Below, one piece after another: positions 16,625-36,479 of a stretch of DNA of 64,000 nt; position 1 is the stretch's first letter, and each line of letters opens with the position of its first letter. Under the pieces are notes generated by a model. The model was not told the DNA's origin. It saw only the letters and a program-made list of their open reading frames with translations, and made no database searches. The stretch comes from Chlorobiota bacterium (lineage in GTDB: Bacteria > Bacteroidota > Ignavibacteria > Kapaibacteriales > NICIL-2), in assembly GCA_039810585.1 (NCBI GenBank), contig JBDHXF010000003.1, positions 93,946 to 157,945 on the forward strand. Reading direction: 5' to 3'. A program made the translations under genes and the position numbers.

Positions 16625-18763
<2,139 letters not shown>

Positions 18764-18859: not shown

Positions 18860-21800
18860 TTAGAAGTTACGGTTCATCTCGCGCCAACGACCGGTTGTGC
18901 CATCGTAAATGAGGGTGATCATGTCGTCGGCATTCATCACAGCATCGGCATTCTTCGACAAGATCATTTTGTTCGCCGCTGTACCGGTGGCTGATTGATG
19001 CTTGATGGTAATGGCGTTGGAACCAACATTGATGAGGGTGATTTGACGACCATCAGTTCCCGATGCAATACTGTTGATGTTGATCGTGGTGGACGCGCTC
19101 ACGCGGAAAACAGAGTTGCCACTCAGTGTCAACGACAAATCTGTTTGATCGGCGCCATAGGCACCGGGACTATTCACACCATAGGTGATAGTTGCACCTG
19201 CTGAAGCCCAGGATAGGGTGCCGCTTCCGTTTGTTGAGAGCATTTGTCCGCTACTTCCGTCTGCTGTCGGCAATGTGTACGTCACATTTCCGGTATTAGC
19301 ACCAGCCTTGAACGAGGTAGTAAAGGTGCGAGCCGGATTGTAAAACTGAAGCTGTCCTGCCGTACCCGATGCGCTGGTATCGATGCTCAGATTACCACCA
19401 CTGAGACGTTCGGAGCCATTCACATGCAGAGTTGCGGTTGGAGTCGAGGTTCCAATGCCAACATTGCCACTTGGGATAAGTAATGCGTAGTTGTTGGTTC
19501 CGCCACTTGCACTAATGTATGCACCGACGTTGGTCGAGCTTGTTCCGGTATGCGTATTCGTCAAGTACAAGCCATAGGTGCTTTGTGTCGTGGTGGAGTT
19601 GGCACCGGACAGGCTGATGTTCAACATCTTCTGTCCGTTCGAAGCGGCTGCTGTCGAAGTCGAACTAAGAGTGAGCGCCGAGTTCGACGACAACGAATTC
19701 CATTGCCAAGTTTGAGCGTAGTCAACGTTGTTGATGCTATTGGTAGCCGTTGCCGCCGTCAAGGCTGAGATAGCGGTTGACGTAGAAGCACTCTGCCACG
19801 ACATATTTCCACTGGCGTCCGATTGCAAGAATTGCCCTGCCGATGGAGCAGAGGTAGGCCAGGTGTAGCTAAGGTTTGCACCCTGCGCCCCGGCTTTGAT
19901 CGACGTTGTAAAGGTTCGTGCCGGGTTATAAAACAAGAGTGAGCCTGCGGTTCCTGAAGCACTAGTATCGATCGTAAGATTGCCGCCACTGAAGCGAGAT
20001 GCGCCGTTAACATGCAGCACTGAAGTTGGTGTCGTTGTTCCTATCCCAACATTACCACTGGGAATTACCAACGCGTAATTGTTGGTTCCACCACTTGCAG
20101 ACAGGTATGCTGCAATGTTTGTAGACGAGGTGCCTGTATGAGTGTTCGTACTATACAAACCGTACGTGGTTTGGGTAGTTGTGGCGTTTGCACCACTGAG
20201 CGATAACGACAATAATTTCTGTGTGTTTGAAGCAGCGGCCGTTGAGGTCGACGACAATGCCAGAGCTGTGTTTGAGCTCAAACTGTTCCATTGCCATGTT
20301 TGAGCGTAGTCAGCATTGTTGATGCTATTTGTTGCTGCGGCTGCTGTTAGACCCGAAATGGGAACCGTTGTTGCTGTTGTCGATGGTGTCACCCAGCTCA
20401 ACGTTGATGAGCCGTTGGTACTCAGTACCTGACCATTCGATCCGTCGGCTGCCGGTAACGTATAGGTAACGTCTACCGATTGTGACTGTGCCTTGAAGCC
20501 TGTGTAGTTGGAGCCACCTGCACTTGGTTCAAAGAAGCGAAGTTCGGATGCTGTGCCGCTATTGCTAAGCAGAACATTCGTGTTGAACGATTTGGTTCCG
20601 TTAATCGTCTGAGCGCCTTCGGTCATCACGAAGCTGGCTGTTGTACCGGCATCAGGAATAGTGTAGGCCCGATTGGCTGCAAGATTTGCCAAGCTAATCG
20701 TTGCTGTTTTAGATGTTGCTTGTCCGTCGTTCAACACCACAGAAGCTGCATTAGAGTTTGATCCGAGTGTAAGCGCACCGGCATTGGTTTGTGCATTGGT
20801 GTTTTCAACCCAAGCCGAGCCGTTCCAGCGAAGGGTGGAGTTCGTTGTTGTGCCGGAAGCGACACTTGCGCCGCCGGTGGCATAGTTCGTCCATGCGCCA
20901 CTTTGATAGAACTCAAATTTTCCGGTGGAGGAGTTATAGCGAATCATACCGTTGACGGGCGACACCGGCTGTTGTCCGGTTGTACCAATCGGAATCGTCA
21001 GCGAAGCATTACCTGGAACGATGGGGTCTGATGCAAGTCCAAAGGTCGGATTGCCTGCTGTACCATCGCCATTCGTGACACTGATCTGATTTGCCGTTCC
21101 CGTCATCGTACGCGCGGTCATGGCTGCCGTTCCATTGCCCGAAGGGAAGCCGGTCATCGTTGCCACACCGGTACCACCGTTCGCCACCGGCAGAATGCCG
21201 CTGACATCGTTAGCAGACGAAAGCGATACTGTTCCTGATGACAACAGACCCGAGGCGTTGTTCTTTACGACGCCGGCAGTTGAGAACGGACTAATCGTTG
21301 GTGCTGAGCCAAAGGTCTTGGAACCGTTGATCGTCTGTGTCCCTTCGGTCATCACAAAGCTGGCTGTCGTACCGGCATCGGGAATAGTGTAGGCCCGATT
21401 GGCTGCAAGATTTGCCAAGCTAATCGTTGCTGTTTTAGATGTTGCTTGTCCGTCGTTCAACACCACAGAAGCTGCATTAGAGTTTGATCCGAGTGTAAGC
21501 GCACCGGCATTGGTTTGTGCATTGGTGTTTTCAACCCAAGCCGTGCCATTCCAGCGGAGAGTTGAATTCGTTACTGTTCCGGCTGCGATGCTTGCGCCAC
21601 CGGTGGCGTAGGTAACCCACGAGCCATTCTGATAAAATTCGAAGCGATTGGATGTGCTGTTATAGCGCATCATGCCGTTCACAGGTGAACCCGGTTGTTG
21701 ACCGGATGTACCGATGGGGATCGTCAGCGACGCGTTGCCTGGAATTATAGGATCGCTAGCCAGGGCAAAGGTCGGATTGCCTGCTGTACCATCGCCATTG

Positions 21801-23014
21801 GTGACACTGATTTGATTTGCAGTTCCCGTCATTGTACGCGCCGTCATCGCTGCGGTGCCATTTCCGGAAGGGAAACCGGTTATGGTTGCGACACCGGTAC
21901 CGCCATTAGCTACCGGCAGAATGCCGCTGACGTCGTTGGTTGACGCCAGTGACACAGTTCCGGATGATAACAGACCGGACGCATTGTTCTTCACAACGCC
22001 GGCTGTTGAAAATGGACTGACGGTGGGAGCAGAACCAAAGGTTTTCGAACCATTAATTGTCTGCGCACCTTCTGTCATTACAAAATTTGCGTTCGCTCCG
22101 GCTTCAGGAATGGTGTACACCCGATTGGCTCCAAGCGTGGAAAGACCAATCGTTGCTGTCTTTGACGTAGCCTGACCGTCGTTTAAAACGAGCGAAGCCG
22201 CATTGGAATTCGAACCAACTGTTACAGTTCCTGCACTGGTTTGCACGTTTGTGTTTTCCACCCACGCCGAACCACTCCATCGAAGAGTGGAGTTATTTGT
22301 TGTTCCGCTCGATACGGAGCCATTGTTCTGCCAGGATAAGTTGCCGGAGGCATCACTCACAAGGTACTGTCCTGCTGCCGGAGCCGTAGTTGGCCAGGTG
22401 TACGTGAGATTTTGACTCTGTGCACCGGCGCGAAGCGCCGTGAAGAACGATCCTGCGGGGTTGGAGAAGCGCAATTGACCTGCGGTACCGGAAGAGGCGG
22501 TATCCAGGAAGATATTTCCTCCACTGATGTGGAGTAGTTGGGATGGAGCGCTCTGTCCGATGCCAATGTTCCCACCGGAGAGTATGCGAAGGCGCTCCGT
22601 GTTGTTGGTAAAGAAGCGGAGGTCGTGAGCGTCGGTCGTTCCTATAAACATACCGGCTGTCGTTCCCGCGTTTCCGTGGAGAGACCACGCAGTGGTCGAG
22701 ATGAGGGTATCCGGATTGATCCAAGCCATACCGGAGCCGGACATTTGCAGCAACTCAGAAGCAGCGCCCGGACTCAGTAAGCCAATTTGGCCGGTAAGTC
22801 CATTCACATGCATGAGCTGCGGTGTGGCAACTCCAAGTGTGGATGGTAGAATTAGTCGGTAAGAACCACTTGCAGAGGATGGAAGTGATATCCACGATGA
22901 ACCGCCGGCGGCACTTCCCAGGCGTAGGGAATCAGCGCCTAACCCTTGAGCATTGCTCAGAGTTGTGCCACATAGCAGCATCAAACATATTATTCCCAGA
23001 GAACATTTATTCAT
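18860..23014 (-). CDS. Giant secreted S/T/G/N-rich repeat protein with phage-tail-fibre-like beta-helical repeats (1,384 aa)
   Basis: A signal peptide is present. An N-terminal roughly 230-aa domain is shared with the adjacent gene (WSLHGNAGTT..FIGTTD..RFFTNNTERLRI). The motif LRFxNPA..F.T...AG....N..YT.P.....GQ.L.....G..SW recurs. It has no T9SS sorting domain. Confidence 0.6.
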   Translation of the reverse strand: MNKCSLGIICLMLLCGTTLSNAQGLGADSLRLGSAAGGSSWISLPSSASGSYRLILPSTLGVATPQLMHVNGLTGQIGLLSPGAASELLQMSGSGMAWINPDTLISTTAWSLHGNAGTTAGMFIGTTDAHDLRFFTNNTERLRILSGGNIGIGQSAPSQLLHISGGNIFLDTASSGTAGQLRFSNPAGSFFTALRAGAQSQNLTYTWPTTAPAAGQYLVSDASGNLSWQNNGSVSSGTTNNSTLRWSGSAWVENTNVQTSAGTVTVGSNSNAASLVLNDGQATSKTATIGLSTLGANRVYTIPEAGANANFVMTEGAQTINGSKTFGSAPTVSPFSTAGVVKNNASGLLSSGTVSLASTNDVSGILPVANGGTGVATITGFPSGNGTAAMTARTMTGTANQISVTNGDGTAGNPTFALASDPIIPGNASLTIPIGTSGQQPGSPVNGMMRYNSTSNRFEFYQNGSWVTYATGGASIAAGTVTNSTLRWNGTAWVENTNAQTNAGALTLGSNSNAASVVLNDGQATSKTATISLANLAANRAYTIPDAGTTASFVMTEGTQTINGSKTFGSAPTISPFSTAGVVKNNASGLLSSGTVSLSSANDVSGILPVANGGTGVATMTGFPSGNGTAAMTARTMTGTANQISVTNGDGTAGNPTFGLASDPIVPGNASLTIPIGTTGQQPVSPVNGMIRYNSSTGKFEFYQSGAWTNYATGGASVASGTTTNSTLRWNGSAWVENTNAQTNAGALTLGSNSNAASVVLNDGQATSKTATISLANLAANRAYTIPDAGTTASFVMTEGAQTINGTKSFNTNVLLSNSGTASELRFFEPSAGGSNYTGFKAQSQSVDVTYTLPAADGSNGQVLSTNGSSTLSWVTPSTTATTVPISGLTAAAATNSINNADYAQTWQWNSLSSNTALALSSTSTAAASNTQKLLSLSLSGANATTTQTTYGLYSTNTHTGTSSTNIAAYLSASGGTNNYALVIPSGNVGIGTTTPTSVLHVNGASRFSGGNLTIDTSASGTAGSLLFYNPARTFTTSIKAGAQGANLSYTWPTSAPSAGQFLQSDASGNMSWQSASTSTAISALTAATATNSINNVDYAQTWQWNSLSSNSALTLSSTSTAAASNGQKMLNISLSGANSTTTQSTYGLYLTNTHTGTSSTNVGAYISASGGTNNYALLIPSGNVGIGTSTPTATLHVNGSERLSGGNLSIDTSASGTAGQLQFYNPARTFTTSFKAGANTGNVTYTLPTADGSSGQMLSTNGSGTLSWASAGATITYGVNSPGAYGADQTDLSLTLSGNSVFRVSASTTININSIASGTDGRQITLINVGSNAITIKHQSATGTAANKMILSKNADAVMNADDMITLIYDGTTGRWREMNRNF
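19240..20400. repeat. In-frame tandem DNA repeat, period about 579 bp, 2 copies
   Basis: The protein repeat IS(G/A)LTAA(A/T)ATNSINN.DYAQTWQWNSLSSN...LHVNG...YNPARTFTTS.KAGA is seen twice. Confidence 0.7.
20600..22320. repeat. In-frame tandem DNA repeat, period 726 bp, about 2.3 copies; copies 2 and 3 are nearly identical
   Basis: ORF-track fragments 20673..20885 and 21399..21611 translate almost identically, as do 21120.. and 21855... The protein repeat runs NSTLRW.G.AWVENTN...FYQ.G.W..YATGGAS. Confidence 0.8.
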
Positions 23015-23316
23015 GTTCGTTGAGATACTCCCATTTTGTACGACATCCTATCGAAAACGGTGTTCGTCCATGGAGGTCTGCAAAGACCTTGCCAGAACAA
23101 AAGGGCACCATTTGTCCGGAGAACAAATGATACCTCGTGGTTTTCGGCTGTTTGTAGCGAAAATTGAGGAGCCTTGGGTTGTTTTTAAGAGAGAAGAGTA
23201 AGGAGGCGTTTTTAGCGTAAAATCGACGTGCGCATGCACGTAAAAAACCTGGAGAGTCACAAGCCTGAGGTAGATGTGTGTTTCCCATCGACTGAAAATA
23301 TTCTGATCACGGTTCT

Positions 23317-26300
23317 TTATTGAATGCGGGTGTACTTCAACATCGAGAGCTTTTTCACAACAGTGGCGGTTCCACTGGATGTACTTTGGGCCCATTGAAG
23401 TTTGATGTTGCCTGCATTGGCACCAACGGAGATCACTCCGCGAATGTTGACAGAGGTAACTCCATTGGTAATGGTAATGGCGCTCGTAGCAGTGCCACTG
23501 GTTCGGAGCCACTCGTGTACGTGACTCGTATTCCCCGAATTAAGATTTGAGCACATATTCAGCGCCATAGTAGAGCCGGTGGGAATGGAAAACGCACACT
23601 TGATTCCACCGGTCGAGCCTGTTAGATCGAGAAGAACATCGACAAACCATTGTTCACCGTTGTTAACCGGGAATTGGAGATCATCGTCGTCCTGCAAGGA
23701 GGTTGACGAACTGAGCGACTCATCCGCAGCTTTTACTTTAAACTGGTCTTTGCCAATGTTAGTCCAGGTCATCGTGCCGGAACCGTTAGTGGCCATGAAG
23801 TCGCCGTTATTTCCATCGGCCGCCGGAAGCGTGTAGTTGACGTCGGCACTCTGCGCTTGTGCACTCAGAGAGCTATAGTTAGATCCACTTGCACTTGGCT
23901 CGTAGAATCGAAGTTGACTTGCCGTACCACTGTTGCTGAGTGCTAGATTACCCTGAACGTCAAGCTTGGACGATAGCGTTGGCGATTGGGTGTTGATTCC
24001 GACCGCACCATCAGATTTAATCGTCATCCGTGGCAAGAAACCCGCGCCGCCTCCAACGGGAGTTGTTGAAAAGATAATGCGTCCCGGAACGTTGCCGGAG
24101 CTGGGGGTACTGTCCACTTCCGAGGCAATATCGGCGCACGACAGATAGCTTCCTCCAAAGTAGGCGCGCCAACGGTACTGTCCGATTTCATCGTTGATTT
24201 GTACATCCGAGTAGCCCGCACCGTAAGTGCCGCGAGACCGAATGAGTTCAAAATGTGGTCCGCCAATGGCAGTTTCCGTCACTCCCGACATCGTCGCGTA
24301 ACTCTCGTCTCCGCCTTCCATAAAGAGTCGATTGGGTAAGCCGGAATACGACGTGGGTAGCGAGCTTGCCGTGTACCCAATTCGCAGCGACCCGTCTGTT
24401 CCAAAACTACCCACTTCCGCATTGTTGACTCGAAAACGCAGAGCGTAGTTATCTGTTGTACCGAGGAAGGGAGCTGCAGCACCGCTATTACCACTCAGCA
24501 ACCAAGAAGTGGAACCCATTGTAGCCCAGCTCAATGTACCTGAGCCATTTGTGCTGAGAACCTGTCCGGAACTTCCGTCCGCACTTGGTAAGGTGTAGAC
24601 CGTACTTCCGGCCGCAGCAGCGGGCGCGAAACCAACAAACCCCGAAGTTGCACCGCTCAACCGAAATGTACCTTTGACATCCAGGGTGGCACCGGGGGAG
24701 TAGGTATTGATTCCAATGAGCGGCGTCGAGGTGTAGATGCCACTGCCATAGATGGTGTTGGCGATACTCATGTAATTGGATCCGGTCGTAGCAGGGCCGA
24801 TACATGTTGAGTCACCGATAAAAATGTTTTTACTACCACTCGTGTGCGACACGCCCGCGTTATGACCAAGGAGCACGTTTTTATCTCCGGATACCAGAAA
24901 ATATCCGGCCGAGGAACCGATGCCTGTGTTGTAATTGCCGGTATTGGCATTGAGCGCAACAATACCAACAGCCACATTGTCTTGTCCGCTGATATTCTGA
25001 TCTAAAGCCACAAATCCCACCGCAACGTTGCGCATACCCGTCGTGTTCTGGAACATCGCTTGATATCCAAGTGCAACGTTTGCAGACCCGGCGTTCGACA
25101 AAGCCGCTTGGTACCCCATAATAGTGGACTGATTACTTTGGTTGAGGTGAATGTACCCATTGGTCTTATTGATGGTCATACGTTCAGTATTCGATGTCTT
25201 GAACATCAGGTCCTGCGCATCGGTTGTCCCGAGAAAATTGGTGCCAGACGTTGTCCCTGCGTTGCCACTGAGTGACCACGATGTAGCACCATTGCCGACC
25301 CAGCTTAACGAGCCACTACCATTGGTGCTGAGTACTTGACCGTTGGATCCATCGGCTGCGGGCAGGGTGTAGCTAACGTTCGCCGTATTGGTACCAGCCT
25401 GCAACGATGTGTAGAAAGTCCTTGCCGGATTATTAAGCATAAGCTTTCCTGCCACGCCGGTAGAAGCTGAGTCGATAAGGACATTACCTGCTACGTGTAG
25501 ACGCTGTGTAGCAACCGGCACTCCAACACCAATTTTACCGGACGATACGGTTGTGCCGGAGCCGCTCACCGATGTACCGAAAATCAAATTGCCAATGCTG
25601 AGTTGATTGCTCCCTGTTGCGCTTGGCGCATCAATGTCATACCCGATTATAATGTTATTCGAGCCACTCGTTAAGGCATCGCCTGCTTTGTACCCCAGCA
25701 GAATATTGTTGGATCCAGTTGTCAATGCGTAACCTGCTTGGAAGCCAAGGAGTGTCGAGTTTGCGAAGGAAAAGGTAGACGTTCCTTGTCCCGCGCTCGT
25801 CCCGACCAGAGTGTTATTTGCCCCGGAGATATTGTAGTATCCCGCATTGTAACCCAGGAGGGTGTTGTTGTCGGCTGTCGCATTACGTCCGGCATAAGCA
25901 CCCACAAAGGTCGAATTTTGAACGTTGGCCGATCCACCCGTATTGGCACCCACGAATACGGAGTATCCCACAGTAGTTGAGGTCTTTCCGGCTCCGGCAC
26001 CAAGGATGGTATTGTAGCCACCGCCAGTGTTGATATCACGTCCGGCTTCATGTCCCGCATAGGTATTTACCGATTGCGAGCCATTGCTCTTGCCTGCACC
26101 CGATCCAAAGAAGCTGTTATATGCACCGCTACTAAGATTCAGTCCCGATTGATAGCCGAAGGTCGTATTGAACGAGCCGATATTGATGAGTCCTGAGGGT
26201 GAGTTGTACACTTTCAAAACCAGATCGGAAGAATCAAGGGTGCCGAGAATGGCGGAACTTCCGCCGAGATTATTGCCGGACAGTGACCACGCATTAGCCA

Positions 26301-27024
26301 CGGCGGCGGCATCTACCCAGCTCAGTACTCCGGCTGAGGACGTACTCAACACATTCCCATCGGACGGTGTAGATAGTGGCAGGGTGTAGTTTATCGTAGC
26401 ACTTTGATTGCCGGCTCGAAACGAGCTATAGAAAGTTCGAGAAGGATTGGAAAACCGAAGTTCAGCCGCGTTACCTGAACTGAGAGTGTCGAGGTACAAG
26501 TGACCACCGCTTAGATGGAGTAACGTGGACGGATTGTTCGTACCAATACCGACGAAGCCACCGGGCTGAATACGTAGTCGCTCTGTTGCATATGTCTTCA
26601 TGACAAGGGGCTGAGAGTCTTGCGTTCCCAAGAACGAAGTGCCCGGCACGGTACCGGCATTTCCTACCAAAGACCATGCTTGTTGCTGAACAATACTATC
26701 GGGTTGAATCCAGCTCAGCGCGCCGGACGACATGCGAAGGAGTTGCGAATCAGATCCGGGACTCAGAAGATTGAGCTGACCACTCGGTCCGTCAACATAC
26801 AGGAGCTGTCCACTGGACGAACCGAGGTTTGGAGGCAAGAGCATTCGATAGCTTTGCGTAGCTGCGGAAGGGAGAACGATCCACGACGACCCACCATTGG
26901 CGTTTCCAATTCGAATGGAGTCGACGCCAAATCCCTGTGCCCAGAGTAGCGTTGGTGCACAAAACACCAGAGCCAGCAATCCATGCTTGTAGTTGCTCAC
27001 CGTACGTCCTATGTAATATCCCAT
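23317..27024 (-). CDS. Giant secreted phage-tail-fibre-like beta-helix repeat protein (about 1,235 aa), paralogous to the adjacent gene
   Basis: The signal peptide is at the internal M (GLLALVFCAPTLLWAQG). It shares N- and C-terminal domains with 18860..23014. The centre holds GYNAG/GYQAG..NTTG.NN..VG head-repeat arrays, as in tail fibres and trimeric adhesins. Confidence 0.6.
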   Translation of the reverse strand: MGYYIGRTVSNYKHGLLALVFCAPTLLWAQGFGVDSIRIGNANGGSSWIVLPSAATQSYRMLLPPNLGSSSGQLLYVDGPSGQLNLLSPGSDSQLLRMSSGALSWIQPDSIVQQQAWSLVGNAGTVPGTSFLGTQDSQPLVMKTYATERLRIQPGGFVGIGTNNPSTLLHLSGGHLYLDTLSSGNAAELRFSNPSRTFYSSFRAGNQSATINYTLPLSTPSDGNVLSTSSAGVLSWVDAAAVANAWSLSGNNLGGSSAILGTLDSSDLVLKVYNSPSGLINIGSFNTTFGYQSGLNLSSGAYNSFFGSGAGKSNGSQSVNTYAGHEAGRDINTGGGYNTILGAGAGKTSTTVGYSVFVGANTGGSANVQNSTFVGAYAGRNATADNNTLLGYNAGYYNISGANNTLVGTSAGQGTSTFSFANSTLLGFQAGYALTTGSNNILLGYKAGDALTSGSNNIIIGYDIDAPSATGSNQLSIGNLIFGTSVSGSGTTVSSGKIGVGVPVATQRLHVAGNVLIDSASTGVAGKLMLNNPARTFYTSLQAGTNTANVSYTLPAADGSNGQVLSTNGSGSLSWVGNGATSWSLSGNAGTTSGTNFLGTTDAQDLMFKTSNTERMTINKTNGYIHLNQSNQSTIMGYQAALSNAGSANVALGYQAMFQNTTGMRNVAVGFVALDQNISGQDNVAVGIVALNANTGNYNTGIGSSAGYFLVSGDKNVLLGHNAGVSHTSGSKNIFIGDSTCIGPATTGSNYMSIANTIYGSGIYTSTPLIGINTYSPGATLDVKGTFRLSGATSGFVGFAPAAAAGSTVYTLPSADGSSGQVLSTNGSGTLSWATMGSTSWLLSGNSGAAAPFLGTTDNYALRFRVNNAEVGSFGTDGSLRIGYTASSLPTSYSGLPNRLFMEGGDESYATMSGVTETAIGGPHFELIRSRGTYGAGYSDVQINDEIGQYRWRAYFGGSYLSCADIASEVDSTPSSGNVPGRIIFSTTPVGGGAGFLPRMTIKSDGAVGINTQSPTLSSKLDVQGNLALSNSGTASQLRFYEPSASGSNYSSLSAQAQSADVNYTLPAADGNNGDFMATNGSGTMTWTNIGKDQFKVKAADESLSSSTSLQDDDDLQFPVNNGEQWFVDVLLDLTGSTGGIKCAFSIPTGSTMALNMCSNLNSGNTSHVHEWLRTSGTATSAITITNGVTSVNIRGVISVGANAGNIKLQWAQSTSSGTATVVKKLSMLKYTRIQ

Positions 27025-27237
27025 ACAGAACCAATGTACATGGCAGTCACCTTCGTGTTCGCCACAAACACGCACCCCTTCTTCTAGGGTGCTCAGTCTG
27101 CCCATGCATCACAAATAGTGCGCCAATTATTGGAGTGTAATGTCCACGATAAGCAATCATTCATCATCCTCTCGACCCACCGAGAAGAGGAAAAAAGGGA
27201 AGAGCGGTGGGTAGTACGGGACGTCCAGGAAGTCAGA

Positions 27238-30581: not shown

Positions 30582-30689
30582 ACGCAGTCACCTTCCTCGT
30601 TGCATGAATATTTGCTACGTTCACCAATAATTCCTGAGTACCAACACGGTGTTGACGTGTTACTCATTAGTGAACCGATTGTTCGTGCC

Positions 30690-33600
30690 ATGCCAGCATT
30701 TTTCCGTCTCTTCCTGTTTGCCTTCTTCGTATTGGGCCTTTGCGCTTCCGCACAACAGGCACGCGTGTCGTCGTCTAATGATGATCATGGCTGCACCATT
30801 GACCTTACAAACCTCAGTACGGCCAACGATGCCATCGAACAACCTCTTCGCGCACTCATCGCCCATCCCGAACGCACTGACTCGATTGAAGCAGCGATAG
30901 AACGACAGGTTTGTCGGCGCTTCTTCATCGTCGTCCCTTCCTCCGGCGCGCTCAGCGCTACGCTCCAAAACATACAAAGCGTTGAACGTACTCTGGGATC
31001 TGATGGCTCTGCTTTGCATCACACGATTGGTGTTGACATTCGCAGATTAGGAATCGTACGGGGAAATTCAGTAGCCGTTATCGTCCTCCATTGTTTTGAG
31101 AGTTCGACGCTACGGTCGTCAGTGCGGGTGCTGAATTCCTGCACCGTTAAGGTTCGATTCGGGGATTCGCTTGCGAGGGGGTCCGGTGGCCTGGTGCATC
31201 GCTTTCCGATGCAAGTCTTAAATAGCGAGTATCTGCACGGTGATAGCCGTGACGTGCGATTAGCCGCCATGTCAGCCGCACTTCGCCTCATAACGAGTGA
31301 TTCCACGCAACTTCCCATCGAAGTGAGCACGCACAAGGACGGCGTTGCTCGCATTCGAGGCGTCGATATCCTTTCCATTCACCCTTCGTGGCAAGGTCAA
31401 GCGTGTTCGCTGTTGCATTTGCGGTATAAGGGACAAGAGCAATGGCTCGCCTGCAGCGATAGTGTGCTTTTGCCGACAACGGATCTGTATTTCCGGGGTA
31501 GTCATGCTTCGGGAGATACCACGTGGTACAGTCCGTTTTCCAACAACTGCGTGTACTATCTTACGCTAGAAGCAGACCATTCGTCCAATCGCTACACTCT
31601 GCGAACATCAGGCGGAACGTCCACAATTCTCAACTCACTCGTTATCGACCGACATTGTGAGGAAGAACACGAGTACGTGCAAGGATATTTCCGCGGATCG
31701 GATGCCAACGATTTCTTCTTAACGGAAACCGCCGAAGGGGAGAAGTGGGTGTGGAGGATGGTGAATCGCTATACACCGTTTGAACATCGCCAAGTTTTTG
31801 TCACGAACGACGCCTTGAACGATTCCGTTCATGTACACATTGAGTACGAGTCGCTGAACGACCTGCCGACCGTGAATCCGGACAAAAGGGTAGTTCTTAC
31901 GCTGAACGGAGACGTTATACATGACGATACATTCGATGGTGCGACGGAAAAGCGACTCGATATCAATGTGCCACGAGAAGTGTTCCGCGGCGGATTGTGT
32001 GATCTTCGATGTGTGTCCATCGGCACCGATACGACTGCTCTAAACTACTCTGAATCGCAAGCCTTTGATTACTACTCTATACGCGCTCGCAGTGAAGCCT
32101 ATGCCATCAGCGGATCGCTGGAAGGCACTGTCGAAGCACCTCCTTCGTCAGCGCTTCAGGTACGATTGCTACGGTCTGAACGTTCAGTAGTTCTGGATAG
32201 TGTCACTCACCAATGGCAGATCGTCAGCGGTCAACCGGGTTTGAGTATGATGCTTCAGGTGCGAAATGGCAGTCGTTCCTGGTCGTCTTGCATTATAAAC
32301 GGGAATACTCTTCTTTCGAGCGCCCTTCGGGCTTGCTCCATATTTGTTTATCATCCTGCCACGGATTCTACCGAGTGGTGGACAGGCAGTAGCTCCGACC
32401 GCGACGGTGCTTTGATTCTCCAGCGTGTACATGAGGGTGACTATGTAGTGGTTCTGGCTAATGACGACCGAAGTTTAGCGCCACAGATCCAGTCAGCTTT
32501 AAGTGGAGTCGGAATTACCAACAGTGCTCAAAAAGTTGCTACCAATGTGTACTATGCCTATCGCCGCATTCAAGGTGGCGCACAGGCGGTGGAGCATTCC
32601 GATGCGACAGAGTTAAGCGATCAAGTGTTTGTGGACGATGCATCAGTCCACGCTTGGCAGGCTCTTGTTCCACTCGCAGCCGGAATGCAGCACCTGATGA
32701 TAACCTCAGAAGATAGTGTTGAGCTCTGCGGACTTCGCCGCATTTCGGATGTTGATTTGACGGATACAACGCTGTCGGCTGATTATATCGTCATCACGCA
32801 TCACACCTTCGAGTCGGCAGCTCGAGACTTAGCTACATTCCGAGCAGGCCAGGGACATCGAACACAAGTGGTGTTTGTTGATGATATCTACCGTCAGTTT
32901 GGCGACGGACAAAAGAGTCCGCACGCAATTCGAAATTTTCTCCGCTATGCCTATGACCATTGGTCGGCTCCGCGCGTTCATGACGTGCTGTTGTTTGGAG
33001 ATGCGAGCTGGGACAATCGATCCATTCGTAGCGGCGACACGATGACGGATTATGTTCCGAGCTACGGCAAGCCCGTGAGTGACGTCTGGTTCAGTTTTGT
33101 CGACGGATCCGATGAATTGAGCGATTTCAATGTTGGTCGTTTGCCGGTACAAAACCTCCGGCAAGCACAGGACTTGGTACGAAAAATCAAGCGGTATGAC
33201 TCTTTGCCTCCCGATTTGTGGTGGAAGAGTTTCCTCTTCGTGTCCGGAGGGCAGACCGAAGCAGAGAAGTTGGATTTTCTTCAGTACAATCAGTCGTTTG
33301 AAAACCAAATTTACTCTGACGATTATTTTTTCCGTTCCAATTCGGTGTGCGGTGATACCACCAATGCCGCCTCGTATTTCCAGGTGAACAACGCCGGCTA
33401 CTCGGTTTCTAATCACATCAATAAAGCGGTTAATGGGCAGGGAGTGGCGTGGATTAACTTTATTGGGCATGGAAGTCCGACACTCACTGATGTGAACGAC
33501 TGGACAGACAGCTCACTAGCCAACGTCGATCGACCATTTGTGCTCGCCACCTTGTCATGCCAAACGGCAGCCTTTGCCGAAGCAGAAGTGTCGTGTATCG

Positions 33601-36479
33601 ATGAGAATTTCCTTTTGGCAAAGGACAAGGGTGCCATCGCCGCGATTGGTGCAACCGGATATGGAATACCGGACGTGCAGTCTATTGTGATGACGAAATC
33701 TTTCTTCGAGCTTTCAACTTTTGGGTCGCGCAACTTGGGTGACATCCTCAGCAATTCAACTGCATTGATTGCAACTTTCAGCGATATCACCTCGCACGAT
33801 GTCTACCTACAGAGTTGCCTTCTTGGCGATCCACTGAGTCGTATTCCCTTCGATACAGTTGCTCATCCGGTTGTACTCGAGCGTAGCCTCCGTATTGAAG
33901 ATAGGAGTGGCAGCCAGTATTTGAGTGACGATCAAGATTCTGCGTTTGTTCACGTTGAGCTGTTTAATGCGGGAGTCCACGGAGATACAGCCACGGTCTT
34001 TTTCATTCATACCTTTCAGAACAAGACGGATACGCTTGTGCGGAGTTTTGATGATGTGTGTATGACAATGCCTACTGACGCGGCATTTTCCATTTTTGGA
34101 CAGAATGGCATTCATACACTTCGTATCGAGGTTCAAGCAGATCCGCGATGGAGTCCATCGTCACGGTTTGGATCGGTGTACACAACGTCGTTCAATGTCT
34201 TCTCTCCGCGCCCGTTGCCAATCGATCCCTTTCCGTATTGGAATGTAAGTGCCGAACATCCGCTGCTGCGCGTGATATCAACCACGAAAGAAGGAGATAG
34301 CGTTCGCTTCGAAGCACAGTTGCGACAAGACTCTGTAGTGCTAGATTCTGTCGGCTACGACAACAATTCGGCGTTGCTTGTCGATGAATGCTTCGTGCAG
34401 TGGCAGCCACCGCTTCACCTCCAAGAAGGGCAGCGATACACTTTCGCGATTCGGTCCCGAAGCGAATTGAGTGGTAAAGAGAGTGCTTGGTTGGAGATTC
34501 CATTCAACGCAGGAGCGGACTCAGACCGCATGTCGATACGCATCCGGAACACGGTACGTCTTGATTCCGCTGCATGGACAAAGTCAGATCGATGGCGCGT
34601 AGACACCACCGGTTCGGAGCCACAGTACGTTTTGCATGACGAGCTTCGCTACGAAATGAGATCCTCGGTAGGATATGGGTACTATGACAGCACCGGCCAT
34701 CTTATCATCCCGATTCAACCCACATTTAAGATTGCCCTGAACGGTGTTACCTTCGGTGATCGTGATGACGTGCGCGGCTTCAATGTCCGCCTGGTCAATA
34801 AACGCACAGGAATGGTAGAGGCAGTGCGAAACTTCGACTGCTTTGTGGACCGTGATTCGTGCGATACCTGTTTCAACGGCTCCGGTAGAACCTTGGTTCG
34901 TTTTCTGCGCGATTCCGTTCCACAGGATGATTACCTCTTCCTGGCTATTTGTGGAAATACCTACGGAGACGTGTTTGTAAACAGAGATCTTGATTCCTTG
35001 CATGAAGTGCTCAAGCGCTATGGATCAGTAGTTGCCGATTCCGTCGTTCCTCCACATTCGTATTTGATGATAGCGGCTGCCGACGATTCGACGCAGCTGG
35101 TTGAGCGCATTCGATTGGATACGCTCAGTCCTCATGCGGCGGAGGATACCGTGTTTGCCTCCGGATCCGTTGCACTACACCCGGATAGTGGTTGGGTGAC
35201 CAGTCCTGTGTATGGACCGGCAAGGCGCTGGACGCGGGCTCAGGTCGAGGGCGAATTATCAGACAGCGTAGCGGCTTTAGCAGTGACCGTCTTCGGTTTG
35301 CGCGACAATTTTTCCGAACCACGAGTTGTCATGTCTGACACTGTTGCGGAGATGGATTTGTCGTCCATCGATGCCACTCGGTATCCCTATATACAATTTG
35401 AGATCCACGTCGTACGGCGAAGCCTGCTCCGGGATCCGGCTTTCCAGGCAATTCGTGTAGATCTCGAACCACTGCCGGAATTAAGTGTTGTTCCGTCGTC
35501 CTACGTGCTAGATGCAGATAGTGTGTTGCGCGGTGACACGATTTCCATCGTAGCCGCGGCCAAGCGAATCTCTCCACGAGCGGTCGTGGACAGTGCCATA
35601 CTCGTCATGCAACGAAACCCTGTGAGCAATACAGGATTTAGCAGCGTAAAGAGTTGGGCGTTCACACAGCCGGGTGATACCGTGACTCTGAACGTGGGAG
35701 ACACAGTTAGCACCTTGCAATTCGGAGACTACACTCTCAACAGTTTTGTTGTCAACCCCGACTCACTTATCCCCGAACTGTATCGGTTCAACAATAGTGC
35801 GCTGCGATATCAAACGGTGATCAACGATACAGAGGCACCACGACTTGAGGTTCACATTGACAGTTTGCCCACGTACGACGGCATGACGGTTGCACGCCAA
35901 CCACTCATTCGATGCCTCATGCGTGACAATTCGCGGATGCCAATCGTGGATTCCTGGCACCTGAGCGGACTCGTGAACGACTCCGCGATCGAGCAGCAGC
36001 CGGCCTATCGTTTTGTGGGAAGTGCGGATATACAGAGTCTCGCGTTTGCTCCGCCGGAAACTCGAGCCTACGTGGAGTTTCGACCAACCTTGCATAACGG
36101 CACGAATACTCTTGAGCTGAATGCCGTTGACTACTTTGGGAACGAGACCGACAGTGTACTGCATCTTTATGTTGATAAAGATTTGTCGGTACAAAAGTCA
36201 AACGTGGTTCCCAATCCGATGAACGAATCGGCACGGATTTACTACACTCTGTACGGTCCATTTGAGCGACAACTCGTCACCTTGGAAATCTACGACGCCC
36301 GTGGTGAACGTGTGCGCAGCATGCTCATCAATGCTCGCTTGGGAACGAACGTAACGATTTTTAATGGCTGTGATGATGAAGGGCGCAAACTCCTGCAAGG
36401 CTCGTATTACTACCGCATTTTTGCATCGCAAAGTGGGTCGATTGGTTCGGAGAATGGCATGTTCATTATTCTTCGTTGA
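30690..36479 (+). CDS. Giant peptidase C25 family (gingipain/PorU-like) protein with a T9SS C-terminal domain (about 1,930 aa)
   Basis: The signal peptide is MPAFFRLFLFAFFVLGLCASAQQ. The C25 core is YIVITHHTFESAARDLATFRAGQG...VVFVDDIYRQFGDG..SPHAIRNFLRYAYDHW. A catalytic His (WINFIGHGSPT) and Cys (LATLSCQTAAF) are present. The C-terminus reads VVPNPMNESARIYYTL...LEIYDARGERV...GSYYYRI, which is CTD-like. Confidence 0.6.
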   Translation: MPAFFRLFLFAFFVLGLCASAQQARVSSSNDDHGCTIDLTNLSTANDAIEQPLRALIAHPERTDSIEAAIERQVCRRFFIVVPSSGALSATLQNIQSVERTLGSDGSALHHTIGVDIRRLGIVRGNSVAVIVLHCFESSTLRSSVRVLNSCTVKVRFGDSLARGSGGLVHRFPMQVLNSEYLHGDSRDVRLAAMSAALRLITSDSTQLPIEVSTHKDGVARIRGVDILSIHPSWQGQACSLLHLRYKGQEQWLACSDSVLLPTTDLYFRGSHASGDTTWYSPFSNNCVYYLTLEADHSSNRYTLRTSGGTSTILNSLVIDRHCEEEHEYVQGYFRGSDANDFFLTETAEGEKWVWRMVNRYTPFEHRQVFVTNDALNDSVHVHIEYESLNDLPTVNPDKRVVLTLNGDVIHDDTFDGATEKRLDINVPREVFRGGLCDLRCVSIGTDTTALNYSESQAFDYYSIRARSEAYAISGSLEGTVEAPPSSALQVRLLRSERSVVLDSVTHQWQIVSGQPGLSMMLQVRNGSRSWSSCIINGNTLLSSALRACSIFVYHPATDSTEWWTGSSSDRDGALILQRVHEGDYVVVLANDDRSLAPQIQSALSGVGITNSAQKVATNVYYAYRRIQGGAQAVEHSDATELSDQVFVDDASVHAWQALVPLAAGMQHLMITSEDSVELCGLRRISDVDLTDTTLSADYIVITHHTFESAARDLATFRAGQGHRTQVVFVDDIYRQFGDGQKSPHAIRNFLRYAYDHWSAPRVHDVLLFGDASWDNRSIRSGDTMTDYVPSYGKPVSDVWFSFVDGSDELSDFNVGRLPVQNLRQAQDLVRKIKRYDSLPPDLWWKSFLFVSGGQTEAEKLDFLQYNQSFENQIYSDDYFFRSNSVCGDTTNAASYFQVNNAGYSVSNHINKAVNGQGVAWINFIGHGSPTLTDVNDWTDSSLANVDRPFVLATLSCQTAAFAEAEVSCIDENFLLAKDKGAIAAIGATGYGIPDVQSIVMTKSFFELSTFGSRNLGDILSNSTALIATFSDITSHDVYLQSCLLGDPLSRIPFDTVAHPVVLERSLRIEDRSGSQYLSDDQDSAFVHVELFNAGVHGDTATVFFIHTFQNKTDTLVRSFDDVCMTMPTDAAFSIFGQNGIHTLRIEVQADPRWSPSSRFGSVYTTSFNVFSPRPLPIDPFPYWNVSAEHPLLRVISTTKEGDSVRFEAQLRQDSVVLDSVGYDNNSALLVDECFVQWQPPLHLQEGQRYTFAIRSRSELSGKESAWLEIPFNAGADSDRMSIRIRNTVRLDSAAWTKSDRWRVDTTGSEPQYVLHDELRYEMRSSVGYGYYDSTGHLIIPIQPTFKIALNGVTFGDRDDVRGFNVRLVNKRTGMVEAVRNFDCFVDRDSCDTCFNGSGRTLVRFLRDSVPQDDYLFLAICGNTYGDVFVNRDLDSLHEVLKRYGSVVADSVVPPHSYLMIAAADDSTQLVERIRLDTLSPHAAEDTVFASGSVALHPDSGWVTSPVYGPARRWTRAQVEGELSDSVAALAVTVFGLRDNFSEPRVVMSDTVAEMDLSSIDATRYPYIQFEIHVVRRSLLRDPAFQAIRVDLEPLPELSVVPSSYVLDADSVLRGDTISIVAAAKRISPRAVVDSAILVMQRNPVSNTGFSSVKSWAFTQPGDTVTLNVGDTVSTLQFGDYTLNSFVVNPDSLIPELYRFNNSALRYQTVINDTEAPRLEVHIDSLPTYDGMTVARQPLIRCLMRDNSRMPIVDSWHLSGLVNDSAIEQQPAYRFVGSADIQSLAFAPPETRAYVEFRPTLHNGTNTLELNAVDYFGNETDSVLHLYVDKDLSVQKSNVVPNPMNESARIYYTLYGPFERQLVTLEIYDARGERVRSMLINARLGTNVTIFNGCDDEGRKLLQGSYYYRIFASQSGSIGSENGMFIILR

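Follow-up and report, generated by a model that had tools for sequence, protein, structure and literature searches.

Old in-frame tandem domain repeats in a putative phage-tail-fiber-like protein gene of a Kapabacteria genome

Organization of the gene

A 64,000-nucleotide (nt) stretch of chromosome from a Chlorobiota bacterium (assembly GCA_039810585.1, contig JBDHXF010000003.1, positions 93,946 to 157,945; hereafter the window) contains a 1384-residue open reading frame (ORF) with two consecutive arrays of long tandem repeats, here termed A and B. The closest database proteins come from Candidatus Kapaibacterium and Kapabacteria metagenome-assembled genomes (MAGs). The repeats were originally predicted to be near-identical in DNA and recently expanded. 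The analysis described here points instead to old, in-frame tandem domain duplications, which probably form the shaft of a chromosomal, Sec-exported protein built like a phage tail fiber in a Kapabacteria (Candidatus Kapaibacterium-like) genome.

The features of the locus are collected in Table I. From the N-terminus, the predicted layout comprises a signal peptide, a lineage-specific N-terminal domain (N-domain), a β-helix-type module, array A, array B, and a β-sandwich tip of the phage-tailspike type. Array A can be written as a-(b-c-a) x 2, corresponding to 2.36 units of 242 residues, and array B consists of two units of 196 residues. A further recurring element, module C, carries the motif NNTERLRI..GN(I/V)GIG..P...LH(V/I) and is found at residues 126-236 and ~809-870, as well as inside both B units.

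The leader was read from the translation, without a predictor, and displays a positively charged start (MNK), a hydrophobic core, and an SNA cleavage motif preceding QG; a QG start after the leader is also seen in the upstream paralog and in relatives. The corresponding NCBI gene call, P0001, is 1373 residues long and starts 11 codons 3' of the first ATG (22982-23014). This shorter version loses the charged start and part of the signal-peptide hydrophobic core, and the longer ORF appears to have the more plausible start. The N-domain and first shaft module share 51% identity with the neighboring paralog and 57-68% with relatives; the N-domain is probably the anchor on the cell side. Searched by itself against the database, this domain gave no match.

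Table I. Features of the fiber gene and its upstream paralog (window coordinates)
Feature	Residues	Position	Strand	Remarks
Whole gene	1-1384	18860..23014	-	Single ORF; putative secreted, modular, fiber-like protein; 100% match to P0001
Signal peptide	1-22	22949..23014	-	MNKCSLGIICLMLLCGTTLSNA / QG; read by eye from the translation
N-domain	23-125	22640..22948	-	Common to the upstream paralog and Kapabacteria relatives
Module C0	126-236	22307..22639	-	β-helix-type shaft module; matches Bd3182 and Bd2133 chains
Repeat A, copy 1 (A1)	237-478	21581..22306	-	726 nt; 76% nt and 84% residue identity to A2
Repeat A, copy 2 (A2)	479-720	20855..21580	-	726 nt; sub-parts a, b, and c
Repeat A, partial copy 3 (A3p)	721 to ~808	20591..20854	-	Sub-part a only; ends at the TQTINGxKSF-NxxLLxNSG junction
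Perfect 163-nt tract in A2		21381..21543	-	Identical to 20655-20817; putative gene-conversion patch
Partner of the 163-nt tract, in A3p		20655..20817	-	Identical to 21381-21543
Short C-type shaft module	~809-870	20405..20590	-	Between arrays A and B; 68% identity to residues 1053-1114 of the neighbor
Repeat B, copy 1 (B1)	871-1066	19817..20404	-	588 nt; repeat at offset 588
Repeat B, copy 2 (B2)	1067-1262	19229..19816	-	588 nt; 77% residue identity to the last B unit of P0002
C-terminal tip	1263-1384	18863..19228	-	Predicted β-sandwich at ~1291-1384 (Phage_depo_C, AlphaFold2, Foldseek)
Upstream tandem paralog	1-1262	23317..27105	-	Same N-domain and C modules, neither A nor B array

Repeat geometry

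A repeat finder reported a three-copy family with a start-to-start spacing of exactly 726 nt (array A, 20591..22306) and a two-copy family with a spacing of 588 nt (array B, 19229..20404). Self-BLASTN of the gene aligned 20592-21581 with 21318-22307 at 80.8% identity over 990 nt without gaps, 20598-20855 with 22050-22307 at 74% (offset 1452), and 19299-19747 with 19887-20335 at 70.7% (offset 588). When all in-frame offsets between 30 and 2500 nt were scanned, the maximum identity over 300 nt was 0.91 at offset 726, 0.72 at 588, and 0.69 at 1452, and at most 0.43 elsewhere. As only these three offsets stand out, far above background, a chance origin of the repeats is excluded. Tandem Repeats Finder reported nothing, which carries no weight against the repeat because its longest period is 500. 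The 726-nt repeat of about 2.3 copies, and the placement of the repeats in frame within one large gene (secreted, judging from its leader), are therefore as originally predicted. The second repeat is likewise present as an in-frame pair of copies, but its period is 588 nt rather than the 579 nt given at first.

The similarity of A3p to the full units stops ~265 nt into the unit. The junction at which array A ends, directly after sub-part a, is conserved between the window and the clade of the related proteins P0004, P0006, and P0007. Because of this conservation, the 0.36 copy appears to be a structural element of an a-(b-c-a)n arrangement, and neither a random truncation nor the debris of a recent event.

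Divergence of the copies

A1 and A2 are 76.3% identical in nucleotides and 84% in residues, with 127 of their 172 mismatches in 726 nt at third codon positions. The synonymous divergence (dS, Nei-Gojobori) is ~1.4, close to saturation, and the ratio of nonsynonymous to synonymous divergence (dN/dS) is 0.07. B1 and B2 share 63% of nucleotides over the full ungapped unit, 71% in the best 450-nt BLAST segment, and 72-74% of residues; here dS is saturated. A1 and A3p are 72-73% (nucleotides) and 79% (residues) identical. The closest pair, as had been noted at the outset, is A2 and A3p, with 92-93% nucleotide and 95% residue identity. The amino-acid sequence of the copies is thus under strong purifying selection, synonymous drift having brought nucleotide identity down to 63-81%, and the copies are partly homogenized.

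The similarity between A2 and A3p is a mosaic, reaching 100% across a perfect tract of 163 nt and 83% elsewhere. Given 22 mismatches in 270 aligned nt, none of 20,000 permutations produced a run as long (p<5e-5). The next-longest perfect runs at offset 726 are 34, 20, and 14 nt, and the recombination substrate in the window amounts to the 163-nt tract (A2/A3p) plus the marginal 34-nt tract (A1/A2). Since a uniformly young duplicate would look otherwise, the mosaic suggests that the 163-nt tract is a gene-conversion patch, a better fit than a young duplicate. The tract also accounts for the early impression of near-perfect DNA. Of two antisense ORF pairs said to lie 726 nt apart and to translate almost identically, 20673/21399 does have this spacing and falls in the identical tract; the other, 21120/21855, is spaced by 735 nt. 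The step from near-identical translations to near-perfect DNA fails, as synonymous sites are near saturation and only the protein is highly conserved. At the level of about 90% nucleotide identity first proposed as the mark of near-identity, the short A2/A3p overlap is the only comparison above the bar.

Each B copy resembles one specific P0002 unit more closely (76-77%) than it resembles the other copy (74%). Given this positional orthology, the B duplication is old and predates speciation.

These data bear on the suggestion that the array is a recently expanded, near-identical DNA repeat in which recombination rapidly switches the copy number, and so varies a surface protein. The close match of A2 and A3p, with its long perfect tract, would be expected of such a switch, as would the variation in copy number among relatives described below. 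At the DNA level, however, the suggestion is contradicted by the near-saturated synonymous divergence of A1/A2 and B1/B2 and the nucleotide identities given above, none of which resembles the near-identical units of contingency-type loci. The age of the B duplication, the mosaic identity of A2 and A3p, and the conserved junction at the end of the partial copy argue in the same direction. A recently expanded, fast-switching array is accordingly very unlikely.

Copy number in related genomes

Copy-number change, as originally proposed, is borne out by the comparison of relatives. L002 and L003 have identical gene neighborhoods and encode P0004 (1769 residues) and P0007 (1524 residues), respectively; another assembly, L004, contains P0007 as well. 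The DNA of L002 and L003 matches at 93.9% upstream and at 98.8% downstream, and L002 possesses exactly one additional A unit, of 735 nt. Between these close relatives, an entire unit has been gained or lost in frame. At the protein level, unit P4_A3 equals P7_A2 (100%), and P4_A2 is 98% identical to P6_A2. The pattern in P0004, P0006, and P0007 could result from two independent deletions of one unit each or from an unequal crossover of diverged alleles; an assembly chimera of a strain mixture is a possible alternative. Viewed from the longer allele, two adjacent units of the three-unit P0004 (L002 11126-13388) match the single middle unit of the two 2-unit alleles (P0006, P0007).

Longer arrays are found elsewhere. 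The array of L007 comprises four complete units, each exactly 726 nt long, and L001 has at least 4.5 units at ~88% nucleotide identity. L001 and L005 are syntenic with the window, sharing the PorU-like protein, a 447-residue ORF (89% identity), and the aminotransferase (78%), and likewise carry at least 4.5 units. The L001 array, from a hybrid assembly (MAG_AAO_H125.55), is frameshifted after unit 3 and then runs to the contig end, and L006, a second contig of the same MAG, begins in frame inside an A unit (1-1245). This looks like an assembly break with indel errors in the repeat, a hazard that had been foreseen for the locus. In L001 12850-14050, frameshifted A fragments lie past the called stop and are followed by unrelated sequence that lacks a long ORF up to the contig end.

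The repeat may thus be real and its copy number in the window nevertheless an artefact, A units having been collapsed through the 163-nt tract during assembly, so that 2.36 would be a lower bound. The tract is longer than usual k-mer sizes, related species have 4 to at least 4.5 units, and in MAG_AAO_H125.55 one contig ends and another starts inside the array, with frameshifted sequence there. An in-register collapse would moreover leave the ORF intact and hence escape notice in the sequence. Outside the tract, however, the three window copies are clearly distinct (76-83%), the reading frame is unbroken with mismatches biased by codon position, and arrays of ~2 units also occur in the related clade, in two independent assemblies. 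A collapse is therefore unlikely. For annotation and assembly, the array can be taken as real; as a collapse through the tract would leave no trace, its copy number is best treated as a lower bound pending reads across the array.

A units are more alike within genomes than between them, with 76-93% versus 68-75% nucleotide identity, and 84-98% residue identity within a protein versus 64-83% between proteins of different species. Perfect tracts are also present in relatives (172 nt in L001, 71 nt in L007, and 116 nt in L002). On these grounds, repeated homogenization or lineage-specific duplication is a property of the family and not of the window gene alone.

The position of the array differs as well. 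Both L007 and L005+L006 carry the A array on a body resembling the upstream paralog of the window. The window itself has it in the ligA-proximal gene, together with that gene's B units and tip; the N-domain of this gene has P0002 as its closest match (68%). As the array resides in different members of the pair, it has moved between tandem paralogs.

Shaft modules and C-terminal tip

The Pfam BppL_N match in the protein corresponds to the motif TQTINGSKTF, which closes sub-part a of each A unit. In a lactococcal phage, BppL_N is a short motif at the N-terminus of the receptor-binding protein of the baseplate. The A unit is also matched by PHROG phage families of unknown function, and sub-part c shows 43-61% identity to ORFs on IMG/VR viral contigs. 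A database search with the A unit returned short fragments only, and none of the giant relatives. In a phmmer search of PDB sequences, the only chains matched were 8ojn/8onb/8onc and 8ond, which represent fragments of the shaft and tip of Bd3182 and Bd2133. The matched regions, Bd3182 632-922 (8ojn, E 5.6e-5) and Bd2133 662-1031 (8ond, E 1.2e-3), are located on the C module.

The best-modeled part of the A unit, and the only one modeled confidently, is the motif PG..S.T.P.GTT.QQP..P.NGM.RYNS....FE.Y..G.W at residues 424-466 and 666-708. The same motif is widespread on freshwater-lake and TARA ocean metagenome contigs (L039-L117).

The tip forms a separately folding C-terminal domain according to three lines of evidence. 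Pfam places Phage_depo_C on residues 1295-1374 (E 1.3e-6). AlphaFold2, run with an 11-sequence alignment, models residues ~1291-1384 as a β-sandwich with predicted local distance difference test (pLDDT) scores of 71-90. A Foldseek search of this model against BFVD (predicted viral structures) gave 69 matches at E<=1e-3, with E down to 1e-6, including the tail spike of Gordonia phage Skog and tail fibers of Rhodococcus phage ReqiPoco6 and Pseudoalteromonas phage J2-1. The Skog and ReqiPoco6 models superpose at 2.3-3.4 Å root-mean-square deviation over 93-99 columns. Matches to phage tailspikes in the PDB are weak (template modeling score 0.33-0.45) and at most consistent with the Pfam and BFVD results. 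The C-termini of relatives differ, so the tip is variable as well as separately folded; it is the putative ligand-binding end of the protein. No enzymatic depolymerase domain was detected in the fiber protein, and its NCBIfam scan gave no match.

A terminal β-sandwich would also be expected if the protein were an adhesin exported as cargo of the type IX secretion system (T9SS), in which case the tip would be a sorting signal and not a ligand-binding end. T9SS sorting domains are likewise β-sandwiches of ~80-100 residues, and a gene for a PorU-like C25 peptidase lies 7.6 kb away. Neither Pfam nor NCBIfam models of the T9SS C-terminal sorting domain (type A or type B), however, matched at E<=0.01, and the tip instead resembles Phage_depo_C and phage tail-spike and tail-fiber proteins. 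In addition, the Bdellovibrionales protein P0039 has the same type of β-sandwich twice at internal positions (residues 1102-1217 and 1687-1808) and not at its C-terminus. It is improbable that the tip is a sorting signal.

Comparison with known fibers and adhesins

Bd3182 and Bd2133, the only proteins of known structure matched by the C modules, belong to the mosaic adhesive trimer (MAT) fibers of Bdellovibrio bacteriovorus, which are trimeric and located on the cell surface (PMC10769870). The window protein resembles MAT fibers in several respects. It is chromosomal and not phage-borne, and both kinds of protein begin with a signal peptide (here read from the sequence), continue through a conserved N-domain and a long shaft of repeats, and end in a C-terminal tip that varies. 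The shaft includes phage-fiber-like β-helix modules, the C modules matching the solved shaft regions of Bd3182 and Bd2133 in sequence. The tip is a predicted β-sandwich, as in MAT members that lack the S74 domain, and several paralogs exist with mosaic exchange of parts.

There are also clear differences. All MAT members have a conserved β-rich N-domain of ~130 residues immediately after the signal peptide (PMC10769870), and the window N-domain has no detectable similarity to Bdellovibrionales fiber N-domains. In an hhalign comparison with the N-termini of three Bdellovibrionales/Pseudobdellovibrionaceae fiber ORFs, using shallow profiles and without the HD100 proteins, the probability was 0.2%; the shared N-domain, the one family-wide sequence feature examined, is accordingly not found. 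The window protein lacks the S74 chaperone-protease domain, it comes from a Kapabacteria MAG for which no predatory lifestyle is known, and an array of 242-residue A units is not described for MAT fibers. Trimeric assembly and surface display, which characterize MAT fibers, are putative in the window protein. Proteins of the FCB (Fibrobacteres-Chlorobi-Bacteroidetes) group have already been listed as MAT-like (PMC10769870).

A genome scan found relatives of the modules in Micavibrio, Pseudobdellovibrionaceae, Bdellovibrionales, and Kordia. Among MAGs of Micavibrio and other Alphaproteobacteria, ORFs of 3,391-5,253 codons contain sub-part c (L009 1344.., L010 4641.., L011 5478.., L022 4227..), and their N-termini resemble prepilin leaders (..ESGN(I/V)FF(T/M)LFGA(V/I)A(L/I)VGV..). 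The occurrence of sub-part c in these ORFs suggests that the shaft module is also carried on a third kind of N-terminal anchor.

Phage tail fibers and tailspikes offer a second set of parallels. BppL of lactococcal phage TP901-1 shares the BppL_N motif that closes sub-part a, depolymerase tailspikes ending in a β-sandwich share the Phage_depo_C-type tip, Foldseek matched the tip to phage tail-spike and tail-fiber proteins, and ORFs on viral contigs share sub-part c. Unlike these proteins, the window protein has a signal peptide, lies among housekeeping genes, and has no detected depolymerase domain.

The streptococcal Alp/Rib, staphylococcal Bap/SasG, and fungal Als/Hil adhesins resemble the window protein in that each of their long in-frame units encodes a folded module, relatives differ in copy number by whole units, and the copies evolve in concert. 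The repeats of these adhesins are typically almost identical in DNA and vary between isolates. The window copies, in contrast, are 63-81% identical, with short perfect tracts only.

Proposed assembly and turnover of the fiber

Between relatives, A units are gained or lost whole and in frame. Whole units would be gained or lost by unequal homologous recombination in short perfect tracts, for which the A2/A3p tract would be the best substrate and the 34-nt A1/A2 tract a marginal one; patchy gene conversion would regenerate such tracts. The array in the window is not a fast-switching contingency locus; the time over which it changes is that in which strains and species diverge. Because overall identity is only 76-81%, its rate of change should be much below that of adhesins with near-identical repeats. 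The product is envisaged as a trimeric surface fiber in which the N-domain would hold the cell end and the tip would bind a ligand. The copy number of the shaft would then determine how long the fiber is, and hence how far its adhesive tip extends, in the manner of Bdellovibrio MAT and phage tail fibers.

Several points weigh against this proposal. Trimerization, surface location, and adhesive function are presumed features. An AlphaFold2 monomer of A2+A3p is poor (mean pLDDT 61) and confident only at residues ~190-232 of the modeled segment, which leaves the shaft fold putative, although chains that need an intertwined trimer to fold commonly give poor monomer models. The failure of the N-domain to align with those of Bdellovibrionales fibers, described above, belongs here too. 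The similarity of units within a genome could reflect independent lineage-specific duplications rather than gene conversion. All comparison genomes are metagenome-assembled, and some copy-number differences are possibly assembly errors, L001 being visibly frameshifted. Finally, a second genome of the species that the window comes from was recovered neither by genome and metagenome scans nor by an exact-sequence look-up of P0001: the look-up returned no contig, and the metagenome scan only distant carriers of the RYN..FE.Y..G.W motif.

It is tempting to speculate that Kapabacteria, which are not known predators, employ tandem MAT-like fiber cassettes with their own type of anchor for contact-dependent recognition of cells, be they prey, hosts, or cyanobacterial partners, with the A array serving as a mobile length-tuning cassette. 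This scenario is a long shot. If it were true, the A array would be expanded, contracted, and passed between adjacent paralogs by recombination, and fiber reach and tip would be re-assorted independently.

The window gene adds a Kapabacteria example to the chromosomal fibers built like phage tail fibers and Bdellovibrio MAT fibers, with a differing N-terminal domain. Its relatives form a clean natural series of ~2, 3, 4, and at least 4.5 units, with whole-unit indels and transfer of the array between tandem paralogs, in which the length of the shaft changes while the protein sequence of each unit stays fixed. The array opens no long-standing question.

Genomic context

The 64-kb window is ordinary chromosome. 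It includes genes for ATP synthase subunits, ligA (16700-18763, convergent with the fiber gene), a class-III aminotransferase, the PorU-like C25 peptidase, valS, a thiolase, citrate synthase, LptD, LptF/G, rpsA, and gyrA. This setting is relevant to whether the gene could encode the tail fiber of a prophage or tailocin and not a cellular surface protein, as its phage-type modules (BppL_N, Phage_depo_C, and PHROG families), BFVD matches, and relatives on viral contigs might suggest. When 25 of the larger ORFs in the window were scanned with Pfam and NCBIfam, however, none matched a phage structural, integrase, or lysis family, and in place of a tail or baseplate cluster only housekeeping and envelope genes were found. 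The flanks are ligA, the aminotransferase, the PorU-like protein, and valS, the locus is syntenic on the chromosome of another Kapabacteria MAG (L001/L005), and the N-terminus carries a signal peptide. A phage origin of this kind is extremely unlikely.

The upstream paralog is 51% identical to the fiber gene over the first ~215 residues after the leader. Its body differs, and is matched by PHROG tail-spike, tail-fiber, and virion-structural families. The 302-nt gap between the two genes contains a hairpin with a 14-bp stem (23104-23134, minus strand), followed by CTTTTGTTCT. The hairpin may be a terminator, in which case the two paralogs may be transcribed separately; the sigma-70 promoter and terminator scan was near background and was used only to note this one hairpin.

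The PorU-like C25 peptidase (1959 residues, 30600-36479, plus strand) has an ILEI-like domain and an FlgD_ig-type C-terminus, and is found beside the fiber locus in L001 too. It scores 209/197 bits against NCBIfam cut-offs of 420/450 (PorU/PorU2), and may be a divergent relative of the T9SS sortase.

In L002 (1-18609) and L003 (1-17874), the fiber gene is the last of several consecutive large genes. In the P0004/P0007 clade, it is followed by three paralogous genes of ~355 residues and then by a flagellar filament cluster (FlaG, FliD, FliS, and flagellin).

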